DNA from: Vibrio cholerae ATCC 14035
GTDB lineage: Bacteria > Pseudomonadota > Gammaproteobacteria > Enterobacterales > Vibrionaceae
DNA length: 5,159 bases
NCBI RefSeq assembly: GCF_000621645.1
Contig: NZ_JHXR01000051.1
Span: forward strand, 1-5,159
Direction of reading: 5' to 3'
Numbering within the stretch: position 1 is the stretch's first letter; every line of letters begins with the position of its first letter. The position numbers and the translations under genes were made by a program. Under the pieces are notes generated by a model that was not told where the DNA came from, made no database searches, and worked only from the letters and a program-made list of their open reading frames with translations. Below, in pieces: positions 1 to 5,159 of the stretch.

Positions 1-33
1 CGCGTTGACAGTCCCTCTTGAGGCGTTTGTTAG
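1..33 (-). repeat. attC site (VCR-type), partial; only the R''/L'' arm is present because of the window edge
   Basis: 'cgcgttgacagtccctcttgaggcgtttgttag' is identical to the right-hand arm of the full repeats at 535-567, 1719-1751 and elsewhere. Confidence 0.9.
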
Positions 34-444
34 CTTCGTAGCCTATTGTTTAACAATGGCTTTTAACACATTTGTTTGAAAGGCATTTTACGCAAAAGAA
101 TCAAGCAAGCACACGTCCAACGCCAAAAGCTGTGACGTTGGCTACCAAAACTTAAAACGATCAAGGTTAAGTTGGCCACGGTTAAGAGTCCGCGACAAAG
201 AAAGCAAGATCACAGCGATGATGCAGCATTTTGTGAAATCAAACTTTCCGAGCGGAACATCCAACAACGTTGAAGCATCGAGGCTTACTAGTTTTCAGCG
301 ACTTTGCACCCACTGAACTTTCAACACGTTCGACCAAATCAGCATCAAGAAAAGCTCAAAAGCCAAATTGTGCAATTTGAACGCTAAAATCTGAATTTTT
401 AGGACAATTAAACCCAGATTTTGATGATTTTTGCTTTAAGAAGC
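34..444. other. ORF-less integron cassette, copy A; candidate non-coding RNA or regulatory cassette
   Basis: Bounded by attC sites, with no ORF of 60 aa or more in any frame. It is a paralogue of 1218-1628 with the same 410-bp length, including a 67-nt invariant core at 161-227 and a conserved hairpin at 364-379. Confidence 0.6.
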
Positions 445-567
445 TAACGCCCGCCTAAGGGGCTGGCAACGCATAACACTAAACTCAAACGCAACAACTT
501 TAACCACCCCGGCTCAATGGGACTGGAAACGCTACGCGTTGACAGTCCCTCTTGAGGCGTTTGTTAT
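445..567 (-). repeat. attC site (VCR-type), complete, ~123 bp
   Basis: Runs from 'taacgcccgcctaaggggctggcaacgc' to 'gcgttgacagtccctcttgaggcgtttgttat' with imperfectly complementary arms. Boundaries are +/-3 nt. Confidence 0.95.
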
Positions 568-1079
568 GCGGTTAATAGCTTAGACATATACAGCTCATTA
601 ACATACTCACCATCGACAACCAGAGAATGGCGCTTTAAACCCTCAACTTCAAAACCACATGACTCATAGAGCCTTTTAGCTCTCTCATTGTGCTGCATTA
701 CGGTCAACTCTAGCCGGCTATATCCATGAGAAATCGCCCAGCCTTCAAGCTTGTTTACTAATTCTTTTCCAAATCCTTGGCCTTTAACAGCTTGGAGAAG
801 GCCAATGACCAAAGACATGCAGTGTTTATTGCGATTGGCTGTATTACCTACACCGACAATGAAACCAAAAGCCTTTTCATCATTGGTCAGTAAATACATC
901 ACCTTATTAGATGAATCATTGAATGAGTGAATAATTTGGATTTGCTGCTCCAGTGTGGTTGTCCTTTCTTCTGGTTCAAGCAGCATAAATTTAGACTCTC
1001 GATCTAATTGGTACATTAATGACAATACTGACTCTGCATCTTCGACTGTTACTTTTCTAATAATCACTTTTTCATCCAT
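564..1079 (-). CDS. GNAT-family N-acetyltransferase (171 aa, start trimmed to MDEKVIIRK...)
   Basis: The translation has the acetyl-CoA-binding motif A 'LLQAVKGQGFGKELV' (Q/RxxGxG/A) and a motif-B-like 'RLELTVMQHNERAKRLYESCGFEVEG'. The ATG at 1079-1077 is the first start outside the attC. The ORF-track start at 1145 is a TTG inside the VCR. The TAA stop at 566-564 lies within the attC. Confidence 0.9.
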   Translation of the reverse strand: MDEKVIIRKVTVEDAESVLSLMYQLDRESKFMLLEPEERTTTLEQQIQIIHSFNDSSNKVMYLLTNDEKAFGFIVGVGNTANRNKHCMSLVIGLLQAVKGQGFGKELVNKLEGWAISHGYSRLELTVMQHNERAKRLYESCGFEVEGLKRHSLVVDGEYVNELYMSKLLTA

Positions 1080-1094
1080 GCTCAAATAACTGCA

Positions 1095-1217
1095 TAACGC
1101 CCGCCTAAGGGGCTGACAACGCATAACGACCAAACTCAAACACAACAGCCGTAACCACCGCAGCTCATTGGGACTGGAAACGCCACGCGTTGGCAGTCCC
1201 TTTGAGGCGTTTGTTAG
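1095..1217 (-). repeat. attC site (VCR-type), complete; variant right arm 'ttggcagtcccttt'
   Basis: Same repeat as the others. Relative to the majority form 'ttgacagtccctctt' it carries an A>G change and a 1-nt deletion. Confidence 0.95.
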
Positions 1218-1628
1218 CTTCGTAGCCTATTGTTTAACAATGGCTTTCTAACACTTTTGCTTGAAATGCATTTTATGCAAAAGCATCTCTCAAACACACG
1301 TCCAACGCCAAAAGCTGTGAAGTTGGCTGCCAAAACTCAAAACGCTCAAGGTTAAGTTGGCCACGGTTAAGAGTCCGCGACAAAGAAAGCAAGATCACAG
1401 CGATGATGCAGCCTTTTGTGAAACCAAACTTGCCGTGTGGAACATCCAACAACCTTGAAGCATCGAGGCTTGTGGGTTTTCAGCGGCTTTGAACCTGCTG
1501 AACTTTCAACACTTTCTACCAAATCGGCATCAGAAAAACTCGAAAGCCAAGTTGTGAAACTTGAATGCTAAAAGCTGAGTTTTCAAAGTAATTAAACCCA
1601 GATTTTGATAATTTTCGCTTTAAGAAGC
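1218..1628. other. ORF-less integron cassette, copy B; paralogue of 34-444
   Basis: Hand alignment to 34-444 gives about 47 differences, including 2 single-nt indels, over ~411 columns. The invariant core is at 1346-1412 and the hairpin at 1548-1563. There is no ORF of 60 aa or more. Confidence 0.6.
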
Positions 1629-1751
1629 TAACGCCCGCCTAAGGGGCTGGCAACGCATACCACTAAACTCAAACACAACAACCGAAACCACCGCGGTTCA
1701 ATGGGACTGGAAACGCCACGCGTTGACAGTCCCTCTTGAGGCGTTTGTTAG
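1629..1751 (-). repeat. attC site (VCR-type), complete
   Basis: Runs from 'taacgcccgcctaaggggctggcaacgc' to 'gcgttgacagtccctcttgaggcgtttgttag'. Confidence 0.95.
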
Positions 1752-2605
1752 ATTTTCTTTCGCACTAACTCAAAATCATTATCAGACAAGTTGAACTGAA
1801 ACAGTTGAAAATCTATATGTTTGGAATCCCAATGGTGGATTTTTGCAATACTGTTCTGAATAAACTCATCCTCACATTTTGCGCCGAATATTATGCTTTT
1901 GACAGCATCGAATGGGATGTGAAATAAATGTATGTTTCCATTTACTACTTCAGTTGAAGTCTCAAGAGGTAGCTCCATTCGATACTCTTGTTCGTATTCC
2001 CAATCACTTCCTTTCGTTAGAAAGACCTCAGACATCGCCTTTTGCCAAAATAATATTGTTTTCCTACGCTTTGTATATGTGACTTTTAATGGAGTACCTG
2101 CATAGTCAAGCACACCACCAGTTTTCTTATTGGGAATAACTTGATTGAAAAATTTGTGCGAGGTATCGAATTCTATCACATACCCTTTATGGCTATTTCC
2201 ATAGTGTGACCACATCAAAAGACTATCTTCTTTTGCTGATAAACAAAGTATTCCATAAGATTGGTCAATTATATCTCGATATTGTCCATTCGCGACACTT
2301 AGACCAAAAGCATCAATTTCATCTGTTACTTTTTTCACGCGTTTATGGTTACTAGTCAGAAGAAGCCTAATCGCAAATACCTTTATAGACATCGGGATTA
2401 ATTTTATATACCAAGGTTCATTTTGGGGAATTTCCTTTACCAAAACTTCAATATTGTCGAGGATATATTGTTTGGTATTTTCTCCCATAAAGTCGACATA
2501 GCGGGGTAAAAGCTCGAATGGATCATTGAACTGTCCAGGCTGAGTAAACCTTAACATTCCATTCTCAAAAAACTGTGGCAACTCATTCGAAATATATTTG
2601 TACAT
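1748..2605 (-). CDS. DUF2971-like protein of unknown function (285 aa)
   Basis: A long uninterrupted ORF fills the cassette, starting at the ATG at 2605 preceded by 'GGGAAAGTAAGG'. The N-terminal 'FTQPGQFNDPFE' and central 'LLMWSHYGNSHKGYVIEFD' motifs resemble, from memory, the conserved signatures of Pfam DUF2971. The TAA stop at 1750-1748 is embedded in the attC. Confidence 0.85.
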   Translation of the reverse strand: MYKYISNELPQFFENGMLRFTQPGQFNDPFELLPRYVDFMGENTKQYILDNIEVLVKEIPQNEPWYIKLIPMSIKVFAIRLLLTSNHKRVKKVTDEIDAFGLSVANGQYRDIIDQSYGILCLSAKEDSLLMWSHYGNSHKGYVIEFDTSHKFFNQVIPNKKTGGVLDYAGTPLKVTYTKRRKTILFWQKAMSEVFLTKGSDWEYEQEYRMELPLETSTEVVNGNIHLFHIPFDAVKSIIFGAKCEDEFIQNSIAKIHHWDSKHIDFQLFQFNLSDNDFELVRKKI

Positions 2606-2625
2606 CCTTACTTTCCCGAAAAATC

Positions 2626-2748
2626 TAACGCCCGCCTAAGGGGCTGGCAACGCATTATCACTAAACTCAAACACAACAACCATAACCACCGCGGCTCAAT
2701 GGGACTGGAAACGCCACGCGTTGGCAGTCCCTTTGAGGCGTTTGTTAT
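2626..2748 (-). repeat. attC site (VCR-type), complete; same 'ttggcagtcccttt' variant as 1095-1217
   Basis: Repeat alignment. The 60-aa ORF at 2608-2790 is only a read-through of this repeat. Confidence 0.95.
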
Positions 2749-2758
2749 AGCGGTGCTT

Positions 2759-3148
2759 TTAGTTGCCCGTGGACATATGATGTGTTGCACATAGCTTATT
2801 GCCTGCAGGATCTCGTAAATAAGCTAAATACATTTTTCTTTGTCCACTCGTTCTGATACCCGGAGGATCTTCACAAGCAACTCCACCATTTGCTAAACCG
2901 GCTGCATGCCATGCTTCTACTAACTCTGGGCTACTAACTTTGAAGCCAATTGTCATCCCATTACCATGCGTCGCAGGTTCACCATTTACTGGTTTAGTAA
3001 TACCAAGCACACCGTCTTGGTTTATGTAGAGACAGCGGCCTTTAGCGTCAATAACACCCGCCGGATAACCTAACACCGACAATATGGCATCATAGAAAAC
3101 CTTTGACTTTTCAATATCATTTGAGCCGATCATGATGTGACTAAACAT
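2759..3148 (-). CDS. VOC-family (glyoxalase / bleomycin-resistance / dioxygenase fold) protein, 129 aa, start trimmed to MFSHIMIGSNDIEKSK...
   Basis: The N-terminus 'FSHIMIGSNDIEKSKVFYDAIL' and C-terminus 'YLAYLRDPAGNKL' are typical of single-domain VOC proteins. The ATG at 3148 is preceded by 'AAAGGAACAAGT', a Shine-Dalgarno AAGGA about 7 nt upstream. The longer track start at 3193 lacks a ribosome-binding site. Confidence 0.85.
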   Translation of the reverse strand: MFSHIMIGSNDIEKSKVFYDAILSVLGYPAGVIDAKGRCLYINQDGVLGITKPVNGEPATHGNGMTIGFKVSSPELVEAWHAAGLANGGVACEDPPGIRTSGQRKMYLAYLRDPAGNKLCATHHMSTGN

Positions 3149-3176
3149 ACTTGTTCCTTTTGTTGAGCAAAGTCGG

Positions 3177-3204
3177 AATTTACTCTGAGGCATCGATTGA
3201 GCAA
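3177..3204 (-). promoter_or_regulatory. Weak candidate cassette-internal promoter (TTGCTC-N16-TAAATT) upstream of the VOC gene
   Basis: The minus strand reads TTGCTC (3204-3199), a 16-nt spacer, then TAAATT (3182-3177). It sits about 30 nt upstream of the start codon. This is a hexamer match only. Confidence 0.2.
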
Positions 3205-3232
3205 TGTCTAGGTTGAAATGTGAGATAAGCTA

Positions 3233-3355
3233 TAACGCCCGCCTAAGGGGCTGACAACGCATTACACGAAACTCAAACACAACAACCGAAACCACCGCGG
3301 CTCAATGGGACTGGAAACGCCGCGCGTTGACAGTCCCTCTTGAGGCGTTTGTTAT
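3233..3355 (-). repeat. attC site (VCR-type), complete
   Basis: Runs from 'taacgcccgcctaaggggctgacaacgc' to 'gcgttgacagtccctcttgaggcgtttgttat'. Confidence 0.95.
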
Positions 3356-3366
3356 GTTTATTTAGC

Positions 3367-3681
3367 CTAAGATTTCAAACAGTTAAATGCTTCAGCGACT
3401 GTTTCAAACTGAATTTTCGCCAAACAGACTTCCGCTAAACAAAACTCATGACGTTGAATCAATCTAGACGCTTCCTCTGCTGAAATCTGGGTTGAATTTC
3501 CAATCAAGCTAACTGCTGAATCATTTGAAACTATTGAATAGACAAAACCTTCAGAATCAATGACTCGATCGCTCGGACTAACGATCAGATCCACACATTC
3601 GCAATTCAAATCAGCCTCTGAGCCCAAATAAACAAGCTCATCGTCACCATCTAATTTCAGAATACAAGGCCAATTGACCAT
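3367..3681 (-). CDS. Hypothetical small acidic protein (104 aa, MVNWPCILKLDGDDELVYL...)
   Basis: The ATG at 3681 is preceded by 'GGAGAAGTTC', with GGAG about 6 nt upstream. The ORF fills the cassette and ends at TAG 3369-3367. My count is about 18 Asp/Glu against 6 Lys/Arg. The track's 27-aa N-terminal extension is VCR read-through. I have a vague memory of a Vibrio/Shewanella DUF with a similar N-terminus, but I cannot verify it. Confidence 0.7.
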   Translation of the reverse strand: MVNWPCILKLDGDDELVYLGSEADLNCECVDLIVSPSDRVIDSEGFVYSIVSNDSAVSLIGNSTQISAEEASRLIQRHEFCLAEVCLAKIQFETVAEAFNCLKS

Positions 3682-3699
3682 GAACTTCTCCGATAAACA

Positions 3700-3822
3700 T
3701 AACGCCCGCCTAAGGGGCTGACAACGCATAACACCAAACTCAAACACAACAACCGTAACCACCGCGGCTCAATGGGACTGGAAACGCTACGCGTTGACAG
3801 TCCCTCTTGAGGCGTTTGTTAT
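3700..3822 (-). repeat. attC site (VCR-type), complete
   Basis: Runs from 'taacgcccgcctaaggggctgacaacgc' to 'gcgttgacagtccctcttgaggcgtttgttat'. Confidence 0.95.
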
Positions 3823-4038
3823 GCTTAAGCTTCAACACTTTACATTTGAACCAAATCAAGAGTAACCCAATGAAATCATTGGCCAAATTCCGAGTTTCCT
3901 TGAATTAGAACTGGCTAAAATTTCACCTATGAACTGACCAATGCAGGCTTTCATTTAGCAACTAGGCCAATGTGGAAACCCTCTCCGACAAACTCACTCG
4001 CCACGCATGGGCGCGACAACTCAATGAGGCAATAACAC

Positions 4039-4107
4039 TGAAATTTACAGCGACAGACACATTGCTGTTTCATTAGGCAGCGCAAAACAATATTCAATTG
4101 CCGACAG
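4039..4107. repeat. Intra-cassette direct repeat, copy 1 (~69 nt)
   Basis: 'tgaaatttacagcgacagacacattgctgtttcattaggcagcgcaaaacaatattcaattgccgacag' matches 4206-4274 with about 7 differences. Confidence 0.8.
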
Positions 4108-4205
4108 ACTTTAAGCCTGTAAGTAAAGGCACCAGACTGCTCAAAGCGACTTGAGCCAACAAGACTAACCTCGCGCAGACTCAAAAACCTAGTGAAGCAA
4201 CAACT

Positions 4206-4274
4206 CAGAATTTACAGCGCCAGACACATTGCAGCTTCATTAGGCAGCGACAAACAATATTGAATTGCCGACAA
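4206..4274. repeat. Intra-cassette direct repeat, copy 2 (~69 nt)
   Basis: 'cagaatttacagcgccagacacattgcagcttcattaggcagcgacaaacaatattgaattgccgacaa', about 167 nt downstream of copy 1 and in the same orientation. Confidence 0.8.
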
Positions 4275-4336
4275 AACCTGAACGAAATCCCAAAGGAATC
4301 GACATTCACAACCTGCTGATTTTTATGGATTAAGCA

Positions 4337-4460
4337 TAACGCCCGCCTAAGGGGCTGGCAACGCATAACAACTAAACTCAAACACAACAACTGCAACCAC
4401 CGCGGCTCAATGGGACTGGAAACGCCGCGCGTTGACAGTCCCTCTTGAGGCGTTTGTTAG
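4337..4460 (-). repeat. attC site (VCR-type), complete
   Basis: Runs from 'taacgcccgcctaaggggctggcaacgc' to 'gcgttgacagtccctcttgaggcgtttgttag'. Confidence 0.95.
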
Positions 4461-4478
4461 GTGCGGGACCATAAACTC

Positions 4479-4502
4479 AAAAGCTCGCCAAAATTGACGA
4501 GC
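4479..4502 (-). terminator. Weak hairpin plus T-tract downstream of the membrane-protein gene; possible intrinsic terminator
   Basis: The minus strand reads GCTCG-TCAATTTTGG-CGAGC-TTTT. This is only a 5-bp stem with a 10-nt loop, so it is marginal. Confidence 0.2.
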
Positions 4503-4509
4503 CTCTGTG

Positions 4510-4935
4510 CTAGATTCTGCTTTTCAGTTCAGTATAAATATTATCTAGAATATGAAATTCATCTTCCGTCCAACAACGCGCTATTGATACCCAGTAATCA
4601 CCCGTTTCATCTGTACCTTTAAACTCTACTTTCAACTCATACTTTCTCATCGAAACCAAAGCCAAAATCAGAGCAATTAGGAGCGCAAAAAAACCAAACT
4701 CAGGTACAAAAGCCCAAGTCGCTGCTGACAGTAAAATGGCGTATGTTGTCACTTTAACCACGTTATCTTTGAAGCCAAGACGCTTCAGTTCAATACTCTT
4801 GATTTTACTTAAGTGATAACTCTCTTTTTTCACTTTCAGCTCAGATGCTGTTACTTGAAAATCATTAGCCGTGTAGGGTTTACGAAACCGAATAGCATTT
4901 ACTAGCAACTGTACTTTCTCGTTACTTTTTTCCAC
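4510..4935 (-). CDS. Hypothetical small membrane protein (141 aa) with a predicted two-helix hydrophobic hairpin
   Basis: The GTG start at 4935 is preceded by 'GGAGAATAAAG', with GGAGA about 6 nt upstream. The nearby ATG at 4948 is out of frame and gives only an 8-codon ORF. Two adjacent hydrophobic stretches, 'TTYAILLSAATWAFV' and 'FGFFALLIALILALVSM' (about residues 62-96), are flanked by charged soluble segments. The TAG stop is at 4512-4510. Confidence 0.7.
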   Translation of the reverse strand: MEKSNEKVQLLVNAIRFRKPYTANDFQVTASELKVKKESYHLSKIKSIELKRLGFKDNVVKVTTYAILLSAATWAFVPEFGFFALLIALILALVSMRKYELKVEFKGTDETGDYWVSIARCWTEDEFHILDNIYTELKSRI

Positions 4936-5008
4936 CTTTATTCTCCATGTTATTAAAGGTTAGCAAAAACTAATGTAATCATGGTGTTAAAGGTTATTTT
5001 CAAAACGA

Positions 5009-5037
5009 CTTATACATAATCAGGGAGAATGCATCAA
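5009..5037 (-). promoter_or_regulatory. Candidate sigma70-type promoter inside the cassette (TTGATG-N17-TATAAG)
   Basis: The minus strand reads TTGATG (5037-5032), a 17-nt spacer, then TATAAG (5014-5009). It lies in an AT-rich leader of about 135 nt between the upstream attC and the GTG start. Confidence 0.35.
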
Positions 5038-5071
5038 CAAAAATAAAGCCAAACTGTGAATGCAACACACC

Positions 5072-5159
5072 TAACGCCCGCAAGGGGCTGGCAACGCATT
5101 AACACTAAACTCAAACACAACAACTGCAACCACCGCGGCTCAATGGGACTGGAAACGCC
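5072..5159 (-). repeat. attC site (VCR-type), partial (window edge), with a 2-nt deletion variant 'cgcccgcaagggg'
   Basis: It aligns to the left arm and centre of the other VCRs. It lacks the 'ct' of the consensus 'cgcccgcctaagggg'. Confidence 0.9.

Follow-up and report, generated by a model that had tools for sequence, protein, structure and literature searches.

The closest described system is a set of gene-less cassettes of the Vibrio cholerae N16961 superintegron (Blanco et al. 2024, Nucleic Acids Res 52:2961, PMC11014356), a cassette being considered gene-less when it had no annotated gene and no ORF >70 aa. Eight out of ten such cassettes had sense promoter activity, 9–66-fold, while lacZ fragments of equal size had none (PMC11014356). 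The activity of the duplicates C5 and C8 lay between those of PcW and PcS, and C8 was picked as the strongest; through a downstream dfrB9 cassette it raised the trimethoprim MIC 2–4-fold at 24 h and >8-fold at 48 h (PMC11014356). Weak antisense activity (2.8–3.5-fold) was found for C5, C8, and C10. Start sites in C5 were mapped by 5'RACE to positions 220, 293, 337, 346, and 367, with one at 359 according to Krin et al., and the authors noted that such scattered sites could represent spurious initiation in AT-rich DNA (PMC11014356). On the native chromosome, RNA-seq revealed just a mild effect for C4 and C6, and C5 and C8 were unmappable because they are duplicated (PMC11014356). In-silico tools failed to predict these promoters, and small RNAs from cassettes were left as a possibility (PMC11014356).

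Paralogous non-coding cassettes were described earlier by Boucher et al. (BMC Evol Biol 2006;6:3, PMC1382264), who proposed a promoter or RNA function for them. In that study, V. cholerae cassettes with an ORF >150 bp or a BLASTX match were scored as coding (PMC1382264), and hence cassettes bearing the Pfam domain DUF645 (PF04875, a Vibrio "protein of unknown function") were probably filed as coding. Two further precedents are cited in PMC8876359. As presented there, the ORF-less cassettes of Treponema (Tansirichaiya et al., Sci Rep 2019) are gene-free and supply promoters for their neighbours, and sRNA-Xcc1 of Xanthomonas campestris (Chen et al. 2011) is a small RNA encoded by an integron cassette.

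Cassettes A and B in the superintegron array

We analyzed a stretch of 5,159 nt (the window) from V. cholerae ATCC 14035 (contig NZ_JHXR01000051.1, positions 1–5,159). The window is a superintegron segment, with VCR repeats spaced every 0.5–1 kb and the cassette genes on the minus strand. It contains two paralogous cassettes, A and B, which are very probably members of one large gene-less "promoter cassette" family found in superintegrons of V. cholerae and its relatives in Vibrio, listed in databases as DUF645.

Both have the architecture of integron cassettes, bounded by G/TTRRRY crossover sites and followed by an attC site of their own at the 3' end (R'', L'', L', R'). According to the boundary motifs, the cassette limits are at 447/448 for A and 1631/1632 for B. 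The body of cassette A occupies 33–447 of the minus strand, which is its sense strand, 447 being the first base past the G/TT crossover; the R'' side of its attC, of the TAACAAACGCC repeat family, lies at 1–32 (minus strand) and is clipped by the window edge. The body of cassette B occupies 1217–1631 (minus strand; annotated as the DUF645 protein Q9KMC7, presumably locus VCA0434/0435), and its attC, recognized by repeat family D1 and the boundary motifs, occupies 1099–1216 on the same strand. Directly downstream of B lies the cassette with a GNAT acetyltransferase gene (564–1079, minus strand; VCA0436, presumably). [quoted passage not shown] No match to the cassette was found in the phage collection. 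In the plasmid collection, the cassette body was found solely in a 599-kb Vibrio replicon, and the other plasmid matches were to the attC part.

Judged by sequence match and array position, cassette A is what Blanco et al. 2024 call C8, with C5 as its duplicate, and lies in the interval VCA0436–VCA0439. The C8 sequence in the machine-read text of their Suppl. Table S1 (PMC11014356) gave a 542-nt alignment of 98.9% identity with L001:10633–11171, which comprises cassette A and its attC, and the mismatches look like reading errors in that text. The cassette C7 matched window positions 3697–4335 at 97%. The gap between C7 and A holds five cassettes, and their order fits VCA0431–VCA0436, within VCA0431–VCA0439 overall. 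Thus A corresponds to the published C5/C8 in sequence, array position, and attC. Cassette B is a paralogue of this set which shares its -10 box, with a promoter region near that of C6.

Neither A nor B has an ORF reaching 70 aa, and both bear DUF645 annotations in some records. A must have been without annotation in the RefSeq record of Blanco et al., since it was selected there; B was left out of the screen because it was an annotated gene. Family sequence was present in C3, C4, C5, C6, C8, C9, and C10, all seven of which belong to the eight that were active. Those without activity were C7 and, by elimination, C1.

The initial annotation had described two paralogous segments, 34–444 and 1218–1628, sharing an invariant core of 67 nt. 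The pairwise comparison was reproduced: each segment is 411 nt long, and the two align end to end with 47 differing columns out of 412 (including two 1-nt indels), an identity of 88.6%. The longest identical run is exactly 161–227 in A and 1346–1412 in B, 67 nt, with the letters originally quoted.

Promoter elements and conservation in the family

Each copy is an ordinary integron cassette with a body of ~415 nt and, behind it, a VCR-type attC of its own, and close to the 3' end of the body there is very probably a sigma-70-type promoter with a near-invariant -10 hexamer TAAAAT and a weak -35. The promoter would fire in the sense direction of the cassette, which is the minus strand of the window, and transcription would pass through attC into the next cassette. 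Accordingly placed, A would serve the cassette past position 1 (VCA0439). The transcript from B would cross the attC at 1099–1216 and express the GNAT gene at 564–1079. The GNAT gene is therefore the likely beneficiary of the B promoter. Of the initial reading as a non-coding regulatory module carried on a mobile integron cassette, the general idea was borne out, while the module appears to be a promoter instead of a small RNA. The promoter function of cassette A is real and already published (Blanco et al. 2024, PMC11014356), so it is not a new finding.

In A, the hexamer TAAAAT lies at 85–90 (minus strand) inside GCGTAAAAT, the -10 predicted by BPROM for C4, C5, C8, C9, and C10 (Suppl. Table S4, PMC11014356). 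In B, it lies at 1270–1275 (minus strand), where bases 1275–1273 form the DUF645 "stop codon". The main start-site cluster of A (5'RACE sites 337, 346, and 367, and position 359 of Krin et al.; PMC11014356) maps approximately to 79–111 of the minus strand; the point from which the start sites are numbered is known only to within a few nt, or ~21 nt should the vector arm be included. These sites map beside TAAAAT, a conserved promoter element upstream of mapped start sites, and the -10 box presumably serves the cluster. The "-10/-35 boxes" of Suppl. Table S3 (PMC11014356) are mechanical and mutually inconsistent. Our sigma-70 consensus scan of positions 1–1760 detected no promoter-like site; the scan was too strict and missed the promoter because its -35 is poor. 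The promoter region of B differs from that of the active C6 at 3 positions in ~80 nt, and by this resemblance cassette B would also be an active promoter. On the other strand, a candidate antisense -10 in A, CGCTAAAAT (382–390, plus strand), coincides with what BPROM predicted antisense for C5/C8; B has the decayed form TGCTAAAAG here, and the family as a whole does not conserve this position.

To describe the family, 79 distinct full-length copies from nine Vibrio species were aligned, 60 of them retrieved via a conserved 26-nt pattern and 19 collected without a scan pattern. The family accounted for 23 of the 144 cassettes (16%) in six V. cholerae array segments. The hexamer TAAAAT was present in 76/79 copies and in all 19 of the copies collected without the pattern. 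This -10 box is the best-conserved unbiased element of the cassette, and it lies outside the 67-nt run. The body had its lowest entropy at the block TCACAGCTTTTGGCGTTGGACGTGTG (22 copies collected without bias), whose conservation is inflated in the 79-copy set because this block was the scan pattern. The block lies at 110–135 in A and 1295–1320 in B (minus strand in both), relative to the start sites at ~-33 to -60, and the weak -35 (GTGCTT) falls within it.

Site rates in the 79 copies were strongly uneven, with an index of dispersion of 4.7 and 42 invariant columns compared to 2 expected.

Several near-invariant blocks exist in the cassette besides the promoter, and ~350 nt stay ~80% conserved across species. 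A promoter of ~40 bp leaves the conservation of these other ~350 nt unexplained.

Could the family instead be a selfish or decaying cassette that spread because its attC recombines efficiently, with promoter activity arising incidentally from AT-rich DNA rather than as a selected function? Boucher et al. raised the selfish alternative for paralogous non-coding cassettes (PMC1382264), and the high copy number (16% of cassettes), the paralogy, and the mosaicism of the family are in line with it. So are the scattered C5 start sites, the poor -35, and the covariation of the cassette ends, which preserves the 9-bp R'/R'' stem. However, the -10 hexamer was kept in 76/79 copies from nine species, while adjacent columns changed 7–9 times; invariant columns were 20 times commoner than expected; and all seven tested family members were active, while lacZ fragments of the same size were not. 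We therefore consider incidental activity an unlikely explanation, and note that selfish spread and a promoter function are compatible rather than exclusive.

RNA structure, the DUF645 frame, and the 67-nt run

A small RNA acting in trans or in cis, with the 67-nt run as its functional core, would fit the internal transcription of the cassettes, whose minor start sites at 220 and 293 flank the run. It would also have a precedent in sRNA-Xcc1 of Xanthomonas, as cited in PMC8876359, and it is the possibility left by Blanco et al. (PMC11014356). Unlike for sRNA-Xcc1, with which the A/B family shares a non-coding function on an integron cassette, no discrete RNA, structure, or target was detectable here. 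A search of Rfam on both strands (E≤1) returned no match to the cassettes. RNAalifold on the 79 aligned copies gave a consensus energy on the two strands of only -12.8 and -10.7 kcal/mol over ~470 columns, with covariation terms of -1.55 and -0.69 kcal/mol, and the only pairing that truly covaried was that of the attC ends, R'/R'', with compensatory changes at very few other pairs. Among all helices of at least 5 bp in these copies, none had more than one compensatory pair. Folded as a single sequence, with and without flanks, the 67-nt run was no better than its shuffles (z-scores of -1.4 to +0.3). A terminator scan of 1–1760 found no terminator-like site in the cassette bodies; its two terminator-like matches were in attC and in the GNAT gene. 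The structure tests are blind to an unstructured base-pairing RNA, and the run itself is not conserved across the family. Taken together, a structured small RNA is not supported, and we regard a small RNA of any kind as quite improbable.

The next question is whether DUF645 is a protein. The cassettes had been called ORF-less, which holds in that no ORF of at least 60 aa exists, but not in the strict sense: on the minus strand, the normal strand for cassette genes, B has a 59-aa ORF (1273–1452, TTG start, annotated as a DUF645 family protein), and A has a 41-aa truncation of it (142–267, TAG at 144–142; UniProt Q9K2L1). Both score far above the gathering threshold of PF04875 (27 bits), B with 138.1 bits over positions 1–59/59 and A with 81.1 bits over positions 1–41/59. 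DUF645 is annotated on 1086 protein clusters, of which the best 120 are 52–74 aa long and all from Vibrio.

An ordinary gene cassette for a protein of 59–60 aa, with many copies as recent pseudogenes, would account for the 138-bit match of B and for the number of annotated clusters. It would also account for the 27/79 copies with exactly 59 codons and the same terminal TAA, for the ATG found one codon upstream in 44/79 copies, and for an ORF region slightly more conserved than its flanks (4.3 compared to 5.4–5.7 steps per column). Yet the frame does not evolve as a gene. It was intact in only 27/79 copies, and net length changes in the region were mostly non-multiples of three (-1, -2, +1, +2, -5, -10, -14, and -29 among them). 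The two thirds of the copies broken by stops or frameshifts were as conserved as the others. Parsimony steps at the three codon positions, counted on a neighbour-joining tree of what is a recombining family, were 263/260/231 in all copies, 94/102/92 in intact copies, and 175/174/156 in broken copies. Thus the third-position excess was missing even in intact copies, while control cassette genes at the same loci had it (12/9/47 for DUF3465 and 58/49/97 for glyoxalase). Similarly, no lower in-frame pN/pS was seen in the 79 copies: the ratio was 0.62 in the DUF645 frame and 0.63–0.74 in the other five, the same in all six frames. An ATG combined with an intact frame occurred in only 12/79 copies, and A and B have neither an ATG nor an evident ribosome-binding site. 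Unlike compact cassette genes, the ORF occupies only 180 of ~415 nt, and its stop codon falls within the conserved -10 box. The Pfam entry itself dates back to ORFs called when the genome was first annotated. A genuine DUF645 protein is accordingly very hard to reconcile with these patterns, and its probability is low indeed.

The small ORFs whose length is conserved between the copies had been said to differ only by non-synonymous changes; in the first 41 codons of the DUF645 frame, A and B differ by two synonymous and five non-synonymous changes. The plus-strand small ORFs at 172–273 and 218–316 had no Pfam match and no phase signal in sliding windows, and a 1-nt indel beside ATGATGCAGCC frameshifts them in many copies. 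An intact longer ORF across the core, which would have indicated a decayed gene, was absent from the 79 DNA copies, the longest read-through being 72 codons. In agreement with the initial annotation, the cassettes behave as non-coding DNA: the one ORF of appreciable size lacks a codon-position signature, and two thirds of the copies have it disrupted. On these sequence grounds, we judged the 59-aa ORF to be free of protein-coding selection, and DUF645 is best taken for a stretch of non-coding cassette that is conserved and resembles an ORF.

The identity of A and B across 67 nt is unlikely by chance, as originally estimated, yet only mildly unusual for this pair. The probability of such a run was 0.006 when the 47 differences were placed at random and 0.013 with site rates from the 79 family copies, and among 306 family pairs with a similar flank divergence 1% were identical across the segment. 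The core is invariant for the A/B pair alone; in the family, the 67-mer occurred in 4/79 copies, and the rest were off by 1–27 positions. The family mean pairwise distance was 0.224 in the run compared to 0.211 in the flanks. The run sits ahead of the promoter, at roughly -70 to -140, with the mapped start-site cluster and the near-invariant -10 box both downstream. The close relatives of B carry another multi-nucleotide haplotype (GAAAGTGTTT...) across the run, where the distance is 0.134 as opposed to 0.092 on either side of it, a sign of mosaic exchange. Selection might also have held the run identical in A and B as a binding site for a protein or as a site regulating the promoter from upstream. 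Its location ~70–140 nt upstream of the start-site cluster and its place in the 1% tail of comparable pairs might be invoked for this, yet such a site is scarcely credible, since the segment is as variable as its flanks family-wide, the haplotype of B's close relatives points to mosaic exchange, and C4, C6, and C9 are active promoters despite many mismatches to it. Rather than a functional core, the A/B identity would represent a gene-conversion or mosaic tract specific to this pair, or chance.

Internal promoters and the DUF645 family

The A/B family resembles the paralogous non-coding cassettes of Boucher et al. (PMC1382264) in its >80% full-length nucleotide identity across species, its many paralogues per array, and its lack of a synonymous-site pattern; gene conversion was suggested for those cassettes as well. 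It resembles the Treponema cassettes in being gene-free and providing promoters for neighbours, while the sequences are unrelated, and the Treponema cassettes, as cited in PMC8876359, belong to an atypical integron and have their promoters on the antisense strand. Blanco et al. (PMC11014356) do not mention that seven of their ten V. cholerae cassettes form one family or that this family is Pfam DUF645, and their study contains no evolutionary coding test. Measured against PF04875, to which B corresponds over its full length of 59 aa and A over 41 aa, the nucleotide family bears no signature that a translated gene would leave. Thus, as far as the sequences tell, DUF645 as a protein family seems to be an artefact of annotation that overlies a family of promoter cassettes.

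We tentatively put forward a broader possibility, which we hold to be more doubtful than probable. DUF645 (>1000 clusters at 90% identity) may be no protein family but the dominant promoter-cassette family of V. cholerae-group superintegrons, and DUF3709, which includes C7, may be alike. The extra conserved blocks may then point to a regulated promoter, with mainly TCACAGCTTTTGGCGTTGGACGTGTG (~-33 to -60, beside the poor -35) bound by a host factor. If true, the expression of distal cassettes would be conditional, not constitutive.

Surveys of cassette function should leave DUF645 out of their "hypothetical protein" counts. Since annotated DUF645 cassettes such as B were omitted from the promoter screen, the internal promoters of the array are probably underestimated. 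Promoter cassettes captured by mobile integrons could activate silent resistance cassettes, a point already made by experiment for cassette A (C8). By reading through into the next cassette, internal promoter cassettes would lead to the expression of genes far from the integron Pc promoter, and would thus explain how such genes are expressed in an array of 180 cassettes.

Family membership and published promoter activity

A repeat of ~120 nt ending CGCGTTGACAGTCCCTCTTGAGGCGTTTGTTA splits the window into cassettes with its eight copies, and the minus strand carries all of the sizeable ORFs. On V. cholerae chromosome 2, the GNAT protein encoded at 564-1079 (minus strand) occurs next to dozens of small cassettes and the integron integrase. 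This identifies the window as part of the V. cholerae superintegron, given in the orientation antisense to the cassette genes, and its minus strand is taken as the sense strand throughout. We aligned 1-570 with 1186-1754 and counted the differences over the cassette bodies. As the initial annotation had proposed, cassettes A (34-444) and B (1218-1628) are paralogous from end to end (412 columns, 47 differences, 88.6% identity).

With B as the BLASTN query, many copies of 79-92% identity were found in eight V. cholerae array segments, with as many as seven within 20 kb. A scan for the best-conserved block, with one genome per species, yielded 53 additional stretches (V. metoecus, V. mimicus, V. 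fujianensis, V. cincinnatiensis, V. injensis, V. chanodichtyis, V. ordalii and V. floridensis). After a profile search and de-duplication, 79 distinct full-length copies were retained (mean pairwise distance 0.176). In the 60 copies found with the 26-nt scan pattern, conservation of that block is imposed by the search, and the pattern's columns were excluded where relevant. Of the cassettes in six V. cholerae array segments, ~16% belong to the family. Its copies lie close together, in places side by side, with seven in 20 kb of one V. cholerae locus (L002, 4934-19818) and two in tandem at another (L008:5364-6319). A 29-nt deletion, which removes the segment homologous to window positions 1337-1365, is common to several copies, and the active cassette C3 belongs to this subfamily.

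Blanco et al. (2024; PMC11014356) placed 30 "gene-less" cassettes from four Vibrio arrays in a two-colour reporter in V. cholerae, and found sense-strand promoter activity of 9-66-fold in eight of the ten V. cholerae cassettes. According to the supplementary sequences, N16961 cassettes C3, C4, C5, C6, C8, C9 and C10 belong to the family described here. The inactive cassettes were C7 and, by elimination, C1; thus, all seven family members were active. C8 matches cassette A and its attC at 98.9% over 542 nt, with mismatches that look like errors of the machine-read PDF. The position of C8 is between VCA0436 and VCA0439; the cassettes that separate A from C7 fit VCA0431 to VCA0436, which identifies A as C8. 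In activity, C5 and C8 ranked above the weak and below the strong class 1 Pc variant, and their antisense activity was 2.8-3.5-fold. C8 was the strongest V. cholerae cassette and was selected for the dfrB9 test; upstream of dfrB9, it increased the MIC of trimethoprim by 2-4-fold at 24 h and >8-fold at 48 h (PMC11014356). Neither DUF645 nor the membership of these cassettes in one family is mentioned in that paper.

The annotated gene in B kept this cassette out of the 2024 screen. Over ~80 nt, the promoter region of B has three differences from that of the active C6, and the TAAAAT is retained; B is therefore probably an active sense promoter that would feed the GNAT gene (564-1079) through its attC (1099-1216, minus strand). 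This VCR-type attC has 93% matches on many resistance plasmids of Aeromonas, E. coli, Klebsiella, Pseudomonas, Enterobacter and Providencia, several of them under or beside AAC(6')-Ib9. The body of B is absent from the resistance plasmids that match its attC.

The DUF645 reading frame

The family has been in Pfam ever since the first genome annotation. The initial annotation held that no ORF of at least 60 aa exists, which holds to the letter but by the narrowest margin: on the cassette strand, B carries a 59-aa ORF (1273-1452, minus; UniProt Q9KMC7) that matches the whole 59-position profile of DUF645 (PF04875) with 138 bits. In A, the ORF is cut by a TAG to 41 aa (142-267, minus; Q9K2L1) and matches positions 1-41 with 81 bits. 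Both ORFs are annotated by gene callers.

The evidence speaks against this ORF being a gene: its frame is broken in most copies, third codon positions show no excess and pN/pS is much the same in every frame. The 59-codon frame is intact in only 27 of the 79 copies; the others have stops or net length changes in the ORF region, mostly non-multiples of three. Parsimony changes at the three codon positions numbered 263/260/231 over all copies, or 249/245/209 once the scan-pattern columns were dropped; intact copies gave 94/102/92 and broken ones 175/174/156. For control cassette genes from the same loci, the same method gave 12/9/47 (DUF3465), 58/49/97 (glyoxalase) and 162/134/202 (GNAT). For pN/pS among intact copies, the DUF645 frame gave 0.62 and the remaining five 0.63-0.74. 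An ATG stands one codon 5' of the homologous TTG in 44 of the 79 copies, is combined with an intact frame in only 12, and is missing from both A (ACG) and B (AGG). No longer ancestral gene is visible: among 5.8 billion proteins searched, 1086 clusters matched, and the best 120 of these 1086 measure 52-74 aa and come exclusively from Vibrio. DUF645 thus behaves as non-protein sequence, which is a modest new point.

Both NCBI and UniProt give a second ORF of A (38 aa, 63-179, minus; Q9K2L0) the name "Tfp pilus assembly protein", which is also borne by the family copy in a Vibrio sp. HDW18 replicon. This ORF lies across the promoter region and matches nothing in Pfam, so the name appears to be an annotation error that was propagated.

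C7 corresponds to the window cassette at about 3697-4336 (body 3822-4336, attC 3699-3821), with a 77-aa ORF (3951-4184, minus) matching Pfam DUF3709 and an internal 65-nt direct repeat (4042-4106 / 4209-4273). C7 showed no promoter activity, whereas its relative C2 is an active promoter cassette (PMC11014356). DUF3709 may be another non-protein cassette family, since changes in seven distinct ORF copies from the fetched loci (26/28/25) show no third-position excess. Elsewhere in the window, a 141-aa cassette protein (4510-4935, minus) has a weak, sub-threshold DUF6232 match (22.9 bits, cut-off 27.4), and ~130 nt of non-coding sequence (4936-5070) separate its start codon from the next attC.

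Conserved elements, the 67-nt identity and RNA structure

Conservation was not uniform once the 79 copies were aligned: site rates had an index of dispersion of 4.7, and 42 columns were invariant vs 2 expected. The -10 box TAAAAT (85-90 in A, 1270-1275 in B, minus strand), whose first three bases are the TAA closing the DUF645 ORF, is kept in 76 of the 79 copies and in 19/19 of those collected without the scan pattern; adjoining columns have up to nine changes. In C4, C5, C8, C9 and C10, the -10 chosen by BPROM was GCGTAAAAT (PMC11014356). Start sites of C5 were placed by 5'RACE at 220, 293, 337, 346 and 367, and by Krin et al. (2018) at 359 (PMC11014356). Converted, the cluster at 337-367 falls at ~79-111 in A, the origin of the paper's numbering being uncertain. 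Within the body, conservation is highest in the block TCACAGCTTTTGGCGTTGGACGTGTG (110-135 in A, 1295-1320 in B), which lies upstream of the -10 and covers a weak -35. Constraint extends beyond the -10 box, and a 40-bp promoter is insufficient as an explanation.

The longest stretch identical between A and B is indeed 67 nt (161-227 = 1346-1412), and such a run is mildly unusual: it arose in 0.6% of trials with 47 differences randomly placed, and in 1.3% with site-specific rates estimated from the family. The run lies at about -70 to -140, upstream of the -10 box and the conserved block, and equals the family majority consensus except for one base. The copies nearest B in the flanks (0.092) are at a distance of 0.134 in the 67-nt segment because they carry a different multi-nucleotide haplotype there, which makes the family mosaic. 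For A and B, which lie 1.2 kb apart, the identity is most plausibly a conversion tract particular to this pair, or else chance at the 1% level. Boucher et al. (2006; PMC1382264) had already suggested that paralogous non-coding cassettes undergo gene conversion. The proposal that the run is an invariant functional core did not survive sampling of the family: the 67-mer occurs in only 4 of 79 copies, the remainder differing at 1-27 positions, and the mean distance over all family pairs is 0.224 within the segment vs 0.211 in the flanks.

A structured sRNA found no support, as Rfam had no match to the cassettes, the run folded no better than shuffled sequence, and no helix in a scan (at least 5 bp, paired in at least 85% of copies) had two or more compensatory pairs. 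For the 79-copy alignment (~470 columns), RNAalifold returned -12.8 kcal/mol for the sense and -10.7 kcal/mol for the antisense strand. The one convincing covariation pairs the first 9 cassette bases with the R'' box of the cassette's own attC (29-37 with 440-448 in A, 1213-1221 with 1624-1632 in B; C-G 50, U-A 29, broken 0), as GTTAGC/GCTAAC in 50 copies and GTTAGT/ACTAAC in 29. This inverted repeat is the extended R'/R'' stem of the cassette's own attC after circularisation, a known DNA-level structure and not RNA.

DUF645 as a probable promoter cassette family

The initial annotation correctly took the cassettes to be paralogous, regulatory and non-coding in behaviour; it was wrong on the location of the function and on the sRNA. 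Earlier work already covers the phenomenon: conserved non-coding cassettes with paralogues were reported in 2006 (Boucher et al.; PMC1382264), and cassette A was characterised in 2024 as a promoter cassette (PMC11014356). The new points are modest: annotated family members such as B escaped promoter testing, and DUF645 coincides with the main promoter cassette family of V. cholerae.
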